Position numbers and translations under genes: made by a program | Part shown: piece by piece, positions 14,791 through 61,199 of the stretch | How positions within the stretch are numbered: the stretch's first letter is position 1 | Layout: every line of letters begins with the position of its first letter | Notes under the pieces: generated by a model | The model's database searches: none | What the model was told of the DNA's origin: nothing | The model's input: only the letters and a program-made list of their open reading frames with translations | Assembly: GCA_964016885.1 (NCBI GenBank) | Contig: OZ024740.1 | Span: 149,544,001-149,608,000, forward strand | DNA: 64,000 nt | Direction of reading: 5' to 3' | Source of the DNA: Eledone cirrhosa | Taxonomy: Eukaryota

Positions 14791-15100
14791 TGTTTCTACG
14801 TTTGGCACAAGGCCAGCAATTACCCAGTGCATTACTGGTACTTTCTGTCTGTATGTCTGGCTGTCTGCATTACGACATTATGACGCGGTGTGTGTGTGTG
14901 TATCTATATATATATATATAGTGTATATATATATATATATAGTGTGTAACGTTTTTCGAAATATTTACTTCTGCGTTCACAGATTGATTTTTTTTTAGTT
15001 TTAGAAGATCCCGTTAAGGGTGAAAGCAACGATTCTTTGCTTAAACTTTAATCTGTTATTTTAATATATATATATACGTGATATATTTAATATATATATA

Positions 15101-15923
15101 TACGTGATTGATTCTTTTGAATTTGCCACCGACCAAGTAGGCAGTGATTTTCTCAATGGCTTGGAACTTAGTCCACGCTTTGCTTTTTTCCAACCACTGA
15201 ATTATTTTTGTATAAGTTCTCTGTGTCCACGCATTGCCTGGGAACTTAGCTGAGAATAGACTTCCCTGATGACGAAAGGATTTCTCCATGCGTTCCTTCG
15301 GAAACCATGTTTATTCCCTTTCAGAAACTAATTAGTTGGAGTGAAATTTTAGTAAGTTAATTTTTATAATTTTCTTATTTTACGTCTTTCATATTATTGT
15401 TCTGCATCACCTTGCATTGAACCACAAAGTTACTAAGACAAAACCTATATATTTGCTAGCATAGGTATGCATCTGTATATATATGTTGGTAGATATACTA
15501 ATTCTTTATAATTATCTCCAAATTATTTTGTTGAGCAAAAATTTGCCAAAACTGCTACTAGAGTTCATAGTAATGGTTCGGCTGCTGTCTTCTTAACACA
15601 CCACTCCTCACTGATTAACCTCGATGTCACGTGATTGATTCTTTTGAATTTGCCACCGACCAAGTAGGCAGTGATTTTTTTCAATGTCTTGGAACTTAGT
15701 CCACGCTTTGCTTTTTTCCATCCACTGAATTATTTTTGTATAAGTTCCCTGTGTCCACACATTGCCTGGGAACTTAGCTGAGAATAGACTTCCCTGATAA
15801 CGAAAGGATTTCTCCATGCGTTCCTTCGGAAACCATGTTTATTCCCTTTCAGAAACTAATTAGTTGGAGTGAAATTTTAGTAAGTAAGTTAATTTTTATA
15901 ATTTTCTTATTTTACGTCTTTCA
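15101..15923 (+). repeat. About 527-bp unit in 1.55 tandem copies with HHR-like motif
   Basis: 15101-15392 repeated at 15629-15923; CTGATGA-CGAAAGGA..TCCTTCG-GAAA-CCATGT at 15266-15310; (TA)n on both sides. Confidence 0.7.
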
Positions 15924-16559
15924 TATATATATATATATATATATATATATATATATGGCGTGCTGCGCTGTTGCCAATATGAACATATGAATGAAAATAG
16001 ACCGAGAAACAAGAATGTCCTTCATCAGTAGTCTGCTGATAATCATTGGTATTACTTCGCATTAAAGACTAGATACCTAAAATCAGTACGAGCGATAACT
16101 AAATAAATTTATGGGGACAGAGGAAAGTAAACAAACAACATGGTAGTAATGCAACGTAAGGAGAGACAAGTCAATGAATCTTGTGGGCTTAAGTTCGACA
16201 AATCAAATGACGAGAAGAAATAGACGCGTCCGAGCCACGCGAAAAGTGAGAGAGGAAAGAATTTCATGCAGGTCAGACGGGAGGAAGTGAGAGAGGGGGA
16301 GTAGCAGAGAGTGAGTGAGTGAAAGTGTGAGGAAGGGGCCAGCTGAGAGTGTGTGACCAGCAGCGGGGGTGGAAGAAAGCAAGAGGTAAAGGGGAGAGAA
16401 GGTGACAGAAAAAATATGAACCACAGCGAAGGGAAAACATATATGTGAATGAAAAATGGCGTGCTCTCTCCCCCTTCTGTGGGTGTCGATAGTCTCTCTT
16501 CTTTTTTCAATCCCATTACCGTCACTTACCTCTGTGTTACTGTCATTATCTGTTTTCTG

Positions 16560-17700
16560 TGTCTGTGTGTCTGTTAAGATTGTGGTGGTGATGAGTGGCA
16601 TAGGATGTGTGTGTGATGTTGCTGTTGATGTGTGTTGTTGTTGTTGTTATTGTTGTTGTCTCTGTGTATGTTGTTATTATTGTTGTGTGTGTTGTTGTTG
16701 TTGTTATCGTTGTTTGTGTCTGTGTGTCTGTTGTTGTTGAGATGTGTGTTGTGTGTGCGTATGTTGTTCGTGTTGTTATTTTTGTTTTTGCTTTTGTTGT
16801 TGTTTTTGAAGCTCCAACGTAATTTTGTAAATGATTTTTCTATTTCTGACAAGCATCTTATCATATTTACCTTATTATATGTGGCATATTTAGGTGGTAG
16901 CTGTAATATGGATAGTTCATCAGTGTCCACTGTAGTGTTGTCGTATATATTTGTGTTGTTGTTGTTGAATTCGTCCATTAATGAGACGTCGGCCATGTTT
17001 ATACCATCAATCCTATCTGGATATATATCTCTATTTTCTGAAGTTTCTTGGTTTAGTTTCATCTGTTTGAGCCACGTTAATTTCTTGTTAAAGTGTTTGT
17101 TGCATTCTTGGATGATGTACTTTTCTTCTTCGTGTATAATGTTTATGTATTCTAATTTTTCTCTTTGTGTGGTTATTTCTCGTATTAGGTTACGCTTATG
17201 TTTTTCTTAATGACTTAATTCTCTGTAAATCTTTTTTATGTTTAGAATTAGTGTTCGTTTTAGTCTACAACTTACCAAAAAACAAGCAGATAATCTTCTT
17301 ACATCGGTGTTGGTGTAAACTCAGGATGAGGCACATTCTTTTATGAAGTGTAGTTGTCGAGCTGCTATTGTTTTCCTTAGGCAACAGAACATGGTGGTTT
17401 TCAGTATCTTGTTAGTTTGGCTAAAGCTTACGATATTTCGTTTCTGAATTTGTTTAGCAAGATTCTTTATCTGAAAACGTGTGTTCAAAAAGATATTGTT
17501 ATACTTTGGGAGGGTCATGTTGCCAATAAGAAACACACGCACCAGATGCTTTCACTCCAATTTATTATAAATTTAATTATAAATAAAAAAATAAAAAAAA
17601 TATAAGTTTCCGGTTGATTGGTTCCACAACCGGACGGTTGTTCATATATTGTCGAAATTCTTTCGTCACAATTCTGTGACCTCTTCAGTGACTGGGGATT
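16560..17700 (-). mobile_element. Penelope-like element 5' part (pLTR + ORF N-terminus), inverted relative to 17701-19686
   Basis: 17107-17700 is the reverse complement of 19098-19686; continues into DELSILQLPPKYA..IEKSFTKLRW, the PLE N-terminal motif. Confidence 0.85.
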
Positions 17701-58329: not shown

Positions 58330-58445
58330 ATTGTTCAAATCCCGCCGAGGTTGACTTTGCCTTTCATCCTTACGGGGTCGATAAGATAAAGTACCAGTAA
58401 TGCACTGGGTAATTGCTGGCCTTGTGCCTAAAGTAGAAACAATTA
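58330..58445 (+). mobile_element. CORE-SINE fragments (also 14790-14845 -, 59263-59347 +, 60090-60250 -, 61085-61150 -)
   Basis: GTTCAAATCCCGCCGAGGTTGACTTTGCCTTTCATCCTTACGGGGTCGAT. Confidence 0.7.
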
Positions 58446-58744
58446 TTTATTGTTTAAACAATAAAGAAACAATTATTTATTGTTTAAACAATAAAGAAAT
58501 AATTATTTATTGTTTAAACATATTATCTTCGTTTTTTTTTCTTTCTTTGCCAGGGAACGTTTCCACGAACCAAAGTATCGTCTTCCTGTCTTCTTTCGGT
58601 TGCAACGTTTTTCGAAATATTTACTTCTGCGTTCACAGATTAATTATTTTAGTTTCAGAAGATCCCGTTAAGGGTGAAAGCAGCGATTCTTTGCGTAAAC
58701 TTTAATCTGTTATTTTAACATATATATATATATAGTTATATAAA

Positions 58745-59913
58745 TTCCATATTTTAAACTATGATAAAATGCTGCTTAACAGCAAAATAGAACGATTTAT
58801 TTTCTGTAGGCACAAAGCAGCTACCAAGTTCGCAAATTTCAAACCAACATGATTCGATCCAGCAATCTCAGAATTCAGACAGAACCACCCGGATTTTAAT
58901 GTACTGACTACATACCACCCCACTGTTATTAGCTGTCAACTGACCAACTGGTCACTAAATCAACATCATAAATCTCCTAACCTTTCTTTCACTCTCTCTC
59001 CCTAAAGCCACATCAACCTCATTAAGATAAGACAATCAGCCTGCCAGACATTTACCACGCCGTCTCATCGTATCCCCCCCCCCACACACACACTCTCTGT
59101 TTCCTGTTCTGTAACTTTTGCCCTCTCACTTAATTTTTAACTTATCTTTTATCTGTCATTTGTTACTATTTTTTTATTTTCTACTCTAAGCCTCTGAGAT
59201 TTGACCACTACATATGTATGTATCTAATGTTTCGTTTCACCTTATTATTATCTCTACCCTCACTTTCATCCTTACGGGGTCGATAAAATAAAGTACCAGT
59301 AATGCACTGATGAATTGCTGGCCTTGTGCCTAAAGTAGAAACAATTATCTCTACCCTCACCCCGTCTTTACACATACACTTACTCACAACTGTAACTTTA
59401 ATCACCACCACCAGCATTATTATCAGCAATCGTATTCTGTACTTATTATTTTTTTAACTTATTGTTTGCATCTTCATCATCTTCATTCTAGCTTCTTTAC
59501 CTCTTTATTATTATCTTTTATCATTGATGTTATTGTTTTGATTCTCCGTTGTATCTATAAATACCAATGCCATATGTAAAACCTCCAGTATTCTGATGAT
59601 TTGATCAGAGGTAAACACTGTATTTAAGGTCGAGTGACGCAACTTCGAGTGATTAGCGGCCTTTAGACTCACCTGATCAATGAAACAATTGTTAATACTA
59701 GAAATAAAACCTTTTTGTACAGCCGACTATGTTATTCTTCAATCTTTCACTATTATTACTCCAAGAATAACCTGCATAGGAATACTCGCGAACTCGCTAC
59801 CTAACGATGGAAACCTCTTGTTGAGTCAAACAACGCCGTACGTTAAAACTATCCACAATACAGAGTACTCACAACCTCTAACTGGATTACCTATAATGAT
59901 AACTTGTTATCCC
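58745..59913 (+). mobile_element. Naiad-like PLE 3' end with HHR at 59587-59699
   Basis: HILNYDKMLLNSKIERFIFCRHKAATKFANFKPT* aligns with YILRNEKRLLNNKIERSIFCRHRIATKFTRFKPP (55841 ORF); shared terminus TTGTTATCCC(TA)n; AGTATT-CTGATGA-T-TTGATCAG..CTGATCAA-T-GAAA-CAATTG-TT-AATACT. Confidence 0.85.
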
Positions 59914-61199
59914 ATATATATATTTATAAATACTGCAAAGCATTCTATACGATGTTCTAACGACTTTACCAATTTGCCACCGCTTTGTGAAGTTAAATAT
60001 ATTATATTATCTAATACTTTCCTCTATATATGCATTCAACTAATACTGGGACACCATAAACTTTAATTTTAAATAATTGTTTTTGATTTAGACACAGGAC
60101 CAACACTTGGGAGGAGGAGAAAGTCAATTAAATCGACCCTAGTGCGTTATTGGTACTTTATTTATAGACCTTGTAGGATGAAAGGCAAATATATCAGCGG
60201 GATATAAACTCAGAACGTAAAAGGGCGTAACTCAATGTCACGAAACATTCTGAAGGCCATCAAATTCTATTGACTTCGGAAGGATTAAAAGCAAAGTTGC
60301 CCTCAGAACGCAGAAAGTTCTGTTTAAATACTACAAAGTATTTTCTCTGACACTCTACCAATTCCACCAATCCACCGCGTAATATATGTAATTATAAAGG
60401 CACATGTGGGTCGAGAGAGTGTCAGTCTCTTAGCCTGCATCAATCAAAAGGTTTAGGAACTCTATTGTACGTATCCGGAAAATATTTTTTAGAATGTTTA
60501 AGAGACCTCATTTGGTATAAGGTGAACAATTTGATCAAGTTTATTTTTATTGTCTCATCAACTATGTTGACTTGGAATTAATTAGTGAATTTTTTTTTTT
60601 AACTTAATAAGTAAAAATCTAATCGGTTTTAATAAAATATAAACTAATTCAATGATAATTTGGAAATTATCATCTGAGTGTATAAATGATCGAATATTTC
60701 CTTATTCAACCAATAATTATGCCTTCAGGTCTGACCAGGCTGTCTAATTTATTTTCGATAGCACCGCAACTAATTTAGTTAATTATTTCCTATCTGCACG
60801 GGGCAGCAGGTTAACTCTTCACTCTATAGCGTCCAACCCAGTAGGTTAGAGTGCAAATCTATTTCAAGTATCTTTCTTAATGAACAACATTATCCAGCAC
60901 TACATGCTGACAACATATCCTTTAATCCTTACATCGACCAGACTATCAGATGTCCTTATACCTCACTAGTCACAATACATTTACATTCTCCTTCTCTTTC
61001 ATTTCGACTGGAATCCTTAGTGGCTTACAGGTGCATGAGATTTTAGTTACACATTTTTTTCTTATCGAAGGTGGACATATTATATCAACCCCAGCACTCG
61101 ACTAGTATTCCACTCTATCGACCCCAGAAGGAGGATTTGAGCCAGAACAAATCATCTTGTCCGACAGCCCCAATGATTCCGCAGTCCAGGTGACAGGTA

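Follow-up and report, generated by a model that had tools for sequence, protein, structure and literature searches.

Penelope-like elements and retrozyme-like arrays nested among (TA)n tracts in Eledone cirrhosa

Several kinds of Penelope-like element (PLE) have a preference for (TA)n. In PMC8557442 it is given for 26 of the 27 listed families of the Hydra clade, across phyla and including Hydra-1_Obim of Octopus bimaculoides, and also for cephalopod Naiads. For the Neptune clade a microsatellite bias has been hypothesised. The subject here is a stretch of 64,000 nucleotides from Eledone cirrhosa (GenBank assembly GCA_964016885.1, contig OZ024740.1, positions 149,544,001 to 149,608,000 of the forward strand), called the window below. 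Over some 45 kb of it, PLE remnants and non-coding hammerhead repeats lie nested among (TA)n tracts.

Three elements in the window, called A, B and C, are much like the Hydra clade as described in PMC8557442. Between them they show a C-terminal GIY-YIG endonuclease, RW[KR] and DKT motifs, a CxCX5C linker and no CCHH motif. They also have a type I hammerhead near the 3' end and insertion in (TA)n, with copies ending at one site. Compared to Hydra-1_Obim, there are three distinct families here, and all copies are broken. A comparison by eye of element A with what is visible of the Hydra-1_Obim protein also shows them to differ.

A fourth element, at 28189-30543, resembles the Neptune clade. It has QxxGTAMG as motif B of the reverse transcriptase (RT), 59 amino acids (aa) between motifs A and B', a CxxxxCxxC linker and a CCHH-type endonuclease. 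A fifth, the 17.7-kb element, shares with Nematis a C-terminal endonuclease, a CX2-5CxxC linker and a YIGET-like motif, but the spacing from A to B' is about 60 aa in Nematis and Penelope and 117-159 aa in the relatives of this element. The insertion of its family lies between motifs A and B', as does the IFD (an insertion within the fingers domain) of telomerase reverse transcriptase (TERT).

Naiad/Chlamys elements share with the locus a (TA)n bias and tandem and inverted structures, and they occur in Octopus. However, their endonuclease is N-terminal and they usually have no hammerhead. A sequence-only reading of this DNA had chosen them for comparison. This was the wrong comparison, because none of the five open reading frame (ORF) remnants has an N-terminal endonuclease linked to RT via a CxC domain. 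In every ORF where the endonuclease is preserved, it is C-terminal and follows the RT, and three of the ORFs are Hydra-clade.

The non-coding arrays in the window are like animal retrozymes without long terminal repeats (PMC7229834; bioRxiv 10.64898/2026.07.22.740005): low-GC tandem units with one type I hammerhead each and a predicted circle that pairs strongly with itself, found alongside PLEs. They differ in having a minimal hammerhead with a palindromic stem III, a fixed 3' end adjoining TA, and fold-back insertions. PLEs have been proposed as the mobilisers of retrozymes (PMC7229834), and an origin from the pseudo long terminal repeat (pLTR) of PLEs has been argued (bioRxiv 10.64898/2026.07.22.740005). 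The words 'microsatellite' and 'target site' do not occur in PMC7229834, and no target preference is reported in the accessible part of the bioRxiv paper. Octopus retrozymes and their TA habit were not found in the literature searched, which held few subscription papers and where only PMC8557442 matched.

The main claim made below mostly restates published biology, and the locus is a real example, and a well-formed one, of how PLEs are known to behave, with new detail that is modest. The small additions are the TA habit of the retrozymes and the TA microhomology at element ends.

Element ends at (TA)n and how they may arise

The favoured account is that the locus is a repeat sink, in which one or two long degenerate (TA)n arrays, targeted by PLEs, have been split by about 27 successive retro-insertions. 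This is considered likely. Both TA targeting and a sink of nested insertions had been proposed by the sequence-only reading, and both are supported here.

To avoid circularity, only families with at least two independent copies were used, with ends defined by homology. There are seven of these: A (2 copies), Hydra A (2), Neptune-like (2), Hydra B (3), 430-bp (4), Hydra C (2) and H (2). An end is said to adjoin TA if at least 14 of the 19 steps after it are alternating TA steps, a cut-off that was set after seeing the data. All 17 homology-defined 3' ends adjoin TA by this measure, even those at 58719 and 59913, where TA is sparse. The background, measured at non-TA points in the nest, is 1.5-1.7%. 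Related copies share a terminus, and within the window termini are enriched for (TA)n over the background, much as had been suggested from the letters alone. Internal copies of the termini (15391, 23112, 38874 and 42854) run on into ordinary sequence, so the TA is not encoded by the elements.

The sequence-only reading had listed 12 TA-adjoining termini. Ten of these are within 1 nt of the edge of a (TA)n run with n of at least 5. Position 49869 turned out to be 10 nt inside a tract, with the true end at 49880, and 54664 is at degraded TA, 40 nt from the nearest pure run. A test of TA distance anchored on hammerheads was dropped, as it is confounded by TA runs inside elements; the homology-defined test was used instead.

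TA also stands at 5 of the 10 5' junctions of PLEs, so the 3' side is the stricter one (Fisher p=0.003). TA flanks the elements B, H1, Hydra B and Hydra C on either side, and five of seven short arms of fold-back elements reach the TA cut-off.

The ends show a further regularity. At 8 of the 10 testable ends, those for which the template further on is known, there is TA microhomology of at least 2 nt (2-7 nt overlap with the template), against a null of 22% (p=1.6e-4; p=0.009 for summed length). The mechanism that we infer from all this starts with GIY-YIG endonucleases of several PLE lineages, mainly Hydra but also Neptune-like, which would nick (TA)n. The freed TA 3' end would then serve as primer, and reverse transcription would begin at fixed points inside the element RNA, apparently aided by 2-7 nt of UA complementarity. 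Most products would be 5'-truncated. Many would fold back so that their arms stand head to head and have two start sites, giving the known PLE tail. Two internal start sites giving a tail have been seen in vitro for the Poseidon element PAc (PMC11167929), and inverted arms, palindromic junctions and Asn-rich inserts of PLEs are described in PMC3846280. The non-coding hammerhead repeats of 430 and 466 bp would depend on some PLE machinery to copy them in trans, and its TA preference would pass to them; this is proposed because they have their footprint in common with PLEs.

The tracts themselves are also informative.

40674..54663, unstranded: long degenerate (TA)n tracts, 130-1260 bp each, with the common interruption motif TATAAAATATA; presumed target array

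Tracts within 40.7-54.7 kb carry this same interruption, including tracts beside unrelated families. The tracts at 21.5 and 27.7 kb have another interruption in common, TATTAATA. Judging by these motifs, the pattern would be as expected for long arrays split by insertions. There may have been a single ancestral array, with the insertions entering it in some order.

Several observations weigh against this account. The hammerhead element ending at 38798 has no TA run there (10/19), and one LINE (long interspersed nuclear element) 3' end, one LINE fragment and one copy of a SINE (short interspersed nuclear element) also adjoin TA. The common tract motifs could also stem from independent slippage or sequencing error. 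The flank evidence is confined to this window, the 10 microhomology cases are not fully independent as they have families in common, and PAc in vitro primed without homology to the cut DNA (PMC11167929). Finally, the driver or parent pLTR of the retrozymes is not identifiable within the window.

Since elements other than PLEs stand at TA, general AT-rich or fragile-site effects contribute. It could even be that there is retention instead of targeting: insertion would be broad in AT-rich DNA, copies would persist in a gene-free TA region, and TA would expand from short seeds at the junctions. The microhomology could provide such seeds, (TA)n tracts make up 14% of 15-60 kb and 0.3% of 1-15 kb, and hotspots of transposable elements are frequent in Octopus vulgaris (288 windows; PMC13282606). 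Against this stand the exact family-specific 3' ends, which reach TA in every case and also where TA is sparse, and the TA preference of Hydra across phyla. In addition, none of the nine matches of another SINE-like family ends in TA, although this is a weak control, with only three of the nine inside the nest and several of them fragments. Retention is considered unlikely, with some chance left to it.

Another thought is that the TA is a tail made by the PLE RT, by reiterative addition as in telomerase, each insertion creating new TA. There are very long tracts beside 3' ends, TA is commoner at 3' than at 5' ends, and the RT fold is nearest TERT, but that similarity is general to all PLEs. 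Tail synthesis also sits badly with TA at half of the 5' junctions, and with tracts beside unrelated families carrying the same interruption motif. It is regarded as very unlikely.

Hydra-clade and Neptune-like remnants

Targeting of (TA)n by PLEs, then, is the reading kept for the rest of this text. By tblastn and translation there are five elements with PLE ORF remnants in 15-60 kb, all broken: three Hydra-clade, one Neptune-like and one unclassified. At least six had been counted from the letters, which is right for ORF segments when the 17.7-kb element's N-terminal arm is taken as one of its own, and not for distinct elements. Pfam missed 10 of the 15 ORFs. The Hydra-clade and Neptune-like copies are as follows.

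21607..25168, unstranded: Hydra-clade element A; inverted 3' arm to TA at 21607, then direct pLTR end and ORF 23207-25168 (plus), interrupted by a LINE piece
45848..48848, minus: Hydra-clade element B; ORF 48848-47649 internally deleted, hammerhead 46035, TA both sides
54665..57338, minus: Hydra-clade element C; ORF remnant 57117-55880, degraded TA both sides
30609..30815, unstranded: Hydra A solo fold-back 3' end; each arm runs to TA, the two ends lying 78 nt apart on the template
30863..31127, minus: Hydra B solo 3' end with hammerhead
53407..54532, unstranded: Hydra B 3' end, 1.1-kb palindrome; 98.5% identity between the arms, hammerheads at 53594 and 54434, TA at either end
59592..59913, plus: Hydra C family solo 3' end with hammerhead, diverged (68%); same terminus, at TA
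28189..30543, plus: Neptune-like PLE; 5'-truncated ORF 28191-29510 with stops, 3' end at TA
39997-40673: second 3' copy of the Neptune-like PLE, end at TA

The Hydra diagnostics of PMC8557442 are found in the three ORFs 23207-25168 (plus), 48848-47649 (minus) and 57117-55880 (minus). Element A has LRWR and SDKT; the third C of its CxCX5C linker is mutated and its C-terminal end is lost. B and C are truncated before the RW[KR]/DKT region. Element B has the linker CNCRNKSNC followed by CDLC and CRH, element C has CNCHLPDRC followed by CRLC and CRH, and neither has CCHH. Hammerheads score 30-42 in the Hydra B family and 42 in the solo copy of Hydra C; that of Hydra A is degenerate and was read by eye. 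In a FastTree tree of 41 sequences, with homologs that carry no clade names, A, B and C all group with unnamed homologs at support 1.0. The spacing from A to B' is 57-67 aa in 99 of 120 Hydra-like proteins.

Hydra C has a 220-bp segment of its 3' region (55441-55660) duplicated at its 5' junction (57116-57332), which suggests a template jump.

The Neptune-like ORF has a C-terminal endonuclease, the linker CGRSNCGTC and a CCHH-type IKCKGC..YIG, and its A to B' spacing is 57-60 aa in 52 of the 63 homologs measured. Its label rests on motifs and unnamed homologs, the tree being without a named Neptune reference. Four of the homologous proteins (P0294, P0296, P0312 and P0323) are deposited under the names of bacterial symbionts of molluscs, which is probably host contamination of metagenome bins.

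A locus like this might also be like a piRNA (PIWI-interacting RNA) cluster, as the sequence-only reading had suggested, or a trap selected by the host; a cluster might be of the dual-strand form. Element fragments are indeed dense, nested and mostly defective over about 45 kb. However, orientations tallied by hand are mixed, with 11 plus, 7 minus and 9 both, so there is no pattern of a single-strand trap, and targeting alone accounts for the density. The suggestion found no support, and is considered quite unlikely.

Hammerhead arrays and smaller elements

Hammerheads were located by a descriptor scan with a cut-off score of at least 24, and four local shuffles as control. This found 24 sites in nine families, where the shuffles gave 0, 1, 1 and 0. 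Some five further degenerate or partial motifs were read by eye, giving about 9-14 families in all, and the earlier estimate of about ten agrees with this. Rfam gave three weak HH9 matches below the gathering score among the 150 of 234 matches listed, most of which are spurious microRNA matches on TA/CA repeats.

31148..41447, plus: 430-bp tandem hammerhead array, in pieces 31148-37663, 38799-39777 and 41259-41447; final 3' end at TA
37664..38798, plus: Penelope-type 3' end inside the 430-bp array; minimal hammerhead near 38678, no TA run at end
42388..43658, minus: tandem hammerhead array with 2.7 copies of a 466-bp unit at 99% identity; TA at its 3' end
43685..44181, plus: monomer of a 430-bp-related subfamily, hammerhead 43842; 3' end at TA
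26627..27112, unstranded: fold-back (hairpin) insertion, 430-bp-related retrozyme family
52308..52802, unstranded: second fold-back of the 430-bp-related family, both ends at TA

Both arrays fit the structural definition of a retrozyme in bioRxiv 10.64898/2026.07.22.740005, which asks for two or more tandem units in a row, each carrying a complete type I hammerhead, and for no ORF. The units have a GC content of 35-37%, one type I hammerhead each and a palindromic stem III, and an RT-like ORF of at least 120 aa is absent from both arrays. The 430-bp array has 17 hammerheads, 12 of them with an intact core, and identity among the 14 monomers measured is 89-98%, neighbours showing no clear gradient. 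In the 466-bp array the core is intact in all three. The predicted circular folds have minimum free energy z-scores of -6.9 (430 bp) and -10.1 (466 bp) against 30 shuffles, both inflated by TA palindromes.

The 430-bp hammerhead has the form CTGAnGAT..TGAA, which is also found in 14 of the 26 Hydra hammerhead rows of PMC8557442. Within the window, retrozyme units and the 3' ends of PLEs show no match beyond 17-18 nt. A single targeting machinery, as had been assumed for autonomous PLEs and retrozymes alike, is not established: the retrozymes lack meaningful similarity to the 3' ends of the autonomous elements, Hydra-like, Neptune-like and unclassified lineages are all present, and a LINE end and a SINE are at TA as well. 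The two retrozyme families do have a terminal stem-loop in common, 69% identical over 88 nt (38842-38872; 43255-43290), which on these letters is a candidate RT recognition signal.

Short (TA)4-8 runs occur twice in each retrozyme unit of 31148-39777, and an expansion of 59 nt is seen in one monomer (52360-52418). Elements could in this way seed new targets.

The 430-bp family is abundant in public short-read runs: 93,406 of 12.47 million and 89,004 of 12.79 million reads match a 761-bp stretch. Contigs of a second organism match this stretch too, and the Penelope-type family is also abundant in the runs. The runs listed as carrying these sequences include none of RNA, which is silent on expression, and those with a small share were set aside, with one exception. 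Read joints that step back 432-436 are no proof of tandem order, because the query unit is circularly permuted.

A pile-up of reads at 38854-38855 in the first of these runs (about 26,000 loose ends, heterogeneous flanks with agreement 0.34) was considered as a terminus without TA. It was rejected: AATT stands at that position, further stacks of read ends lie on the AATT sites of 38741-44 and 38918-21, and CATGC opens the reads, matching GCATGC sites of the subfamily. This fits ligation chimeras from double-digest restriction-site-associated DNA sequencing, with an enzyme pair that we infer. Because 18 nt separate the terminus from a restriction site upstream of it, the read-based terminus test says nothing either way.

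Palindromes and long TA tracts could in principle be artefacts of long reads or assembly. The arms at 53407-54532 are 98.5% identical, and none of the matching contigs spans the tested 761-bp stretch. However, five other inverted pairs are only 92-94% identical, with arms that end at different family-specific points with tails, the array units differ by 2-11%, and the families are present in independent short-read runs. Artefact is a very unlikely explanation.

The smaller elements of the nest are these.

14945..15063, plus: family A 3' end, degenerate hammerhead, ends at TA
58601..58719, plus: second copy of family A, 3' end at TA
15103..15922, plus: family B partial tandem, 527-bp period, type I hammerhead 15266, TA both sides
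15957..16480, minus: probable 3' end of another element, CTGATGA core 16028 with incomplete structure, ends at TA; left boundary placed by TA only
26498..26598, plus: 3' end of family H with TA on either side; its other copy is 49880-49977 (minus)
27127..27690, plus: family E, hammerhead 27493 with degenerate core, short inverted arm, ends at TA
50008..50392, unstranded: fold-back element, 94% identity between the arms; TA at the end of the long arm and not of the short one
50669..50796, minus: family F 3' end, hammerhead 50750, ends at TA
50924..51446, plus: family G 3' end, hammerhead 51324, ends at TA
51949..52162, unstranded: fold-back element, 38-nt tail on one arm, both ends at TA
19688..21509, plus: non-LTR LINE fragment, RVT_1 match, 3' end adjoins TA
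44370..44588, plus: SINE-like repeat (label by inspection), TA both sides; copy at 61203-61410 without TA

The labels SINE, LINE type and, for 37664-38798, Penelope-type are what we take these elements to be from inspection, apart from the RVT_1 match of the LINE.

Families F and G stand head to head with their hammerhead 3' ends around a (CTT)42 run (50669-51446). A (TCT)24 run at 40899-40972 lies inside another insert, with a truncated hammerhead core at 41253. One LINE copy is present as two consecutive pieces, 25169-25371 and 28039-28188, in reversed order about 3 kb apart and meeting at CTCTAC. One piece is fused to Hydra A and the other to the Neptune-like ORF. The arrangement resembles an insert that has been circularly permuted, or else the outcome of a reciprocal exchange. 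Outside the nest, 341-1964 holds a broken PIF1 helicase ORF (PF05970, PF21530), probably a Helitron remnant, and 63139-63625 is a 69-bp tandem repeat of 7.1 copies in which several frames are open.

A PLE whose relatives have a long insertion in the RT

The remaining PLE is the 17.7-kb element.

16481..17707, minus: inverted arm of the long-insertion PLE; pLTR, hammerhead 17688, N-terminal ORF with Asn-rich insert
17706..19687, plus: body of the long-insertion PLE; RT 5'-truncated and present from near motif B' on, thumb, CX4CxxC linker and remnant of a C-terminal GIY-YIG (ORF as far as 18908), pLTR with hammerhead 19109

It has general PLE traits: a predicted TERT-like RT, a GIY-YIG endonuclease, a pLTR with hammerhead and an inverted 5' arm, which is 92% identical. 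The end of its direct arm at 19687 has been cut by the LINE, and its target preference is masked by neighbouring insertions. In the wider family, 16 of 57 loci were scanned, on short contigs, and gave one (TA)5 and two weak hammerheads that are identical in sequence.

The best named homolog of ORF 17595-18908 is an Octopus vulgaris protein at 64% identity. Among the matches listed, relatives at E<1e-90 form at least 150 clusters at 50% identity. Their A to B' spacing is 117-159 aa with a median of 129, measurable in 82 of 161 homologs. As the copy in the window is truncated before the insert, its own spacing would be as in P0121 (64% identical) and the other relatives (P0121-P0281). Of the 86 homologs in which the C-terminus is present, 79 show a CX2-6CxxC linker, and a motif of the YxGE[TS] type is likewise seen in 79. 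In the relatives, motif B reads GG[AP]IG and not GLAMG, and there is a WWD motif.

The clades with a C-terminal endonuclease (Penelope/Poseidon, Neptune, Nematis and Hydra) have a spacing of about 60 aa, which the relatives do not share. Counted from the text of Fig. S1 of PMC8557442, and so approximate, the canonical spacing is about 59-60 aa, that of Naiad about 81 and that of human TERT about 115. According to PMC8557442, PLEs with a C-terminal endonuclease are without an IFD, which is reported only in those with an N-terminal one. Going by the motifs and spacing of its relatives and the accessible descriptions of clades, the 17.7-kb element appears to fit none of the eight PLE clades.

A model of homolog P0122 (pLDDT 93) has its best matches with TERT (Z 13.5, root-mean-square deviation 3.6, 340 aligned). 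The same should be true of any PLE RT. In the FastTree tree of 41 sequences, which has no named references, the long-insertion group is monophyletic with support 0.6 after re-rooting. GGPIG, GGAIG and GAAIG have no matches in the accessible supplement of PMC8557442, whose long sequence lines are cut and whose fasta is without canonical PLE references, and no clade description that fits the family was found in the literature searched. A PDB sequence search gave one weak DRT1 match and an Atlas search only unnamed or generic clusters.

It is possible, although we would sooner bet against it, that two things hold together. One element of the nest would belong to a PLE clade that is widespread and undescribed, in which the GIY-YIG is C-terminal and RT motifs A and B' are set apart by a conserved insertion of some 70 aa, the length of the TERT IFD. 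And in TA-targeting PLEs and their retrozyme passengers, base pairing between short UA stretches and the nicked TA primer would decide where reverse transcription starts. Insert and IFD may be unrelated, the likeness being one of length and position. If the family really is unclassified, it bears on the relationship between PLEs and telomerase.

The non-coding hammerhead arrays in this locus bear the insertion signature of PLEs, with a fixed 3' end, a TA target, fold-back arms and tails, and this is footprint evidence on who mobilises animal retrozymes. If the pairing of start sites is true, it would explain the tails of PLEs and would name PLEs as the retrozyme mobiliser.

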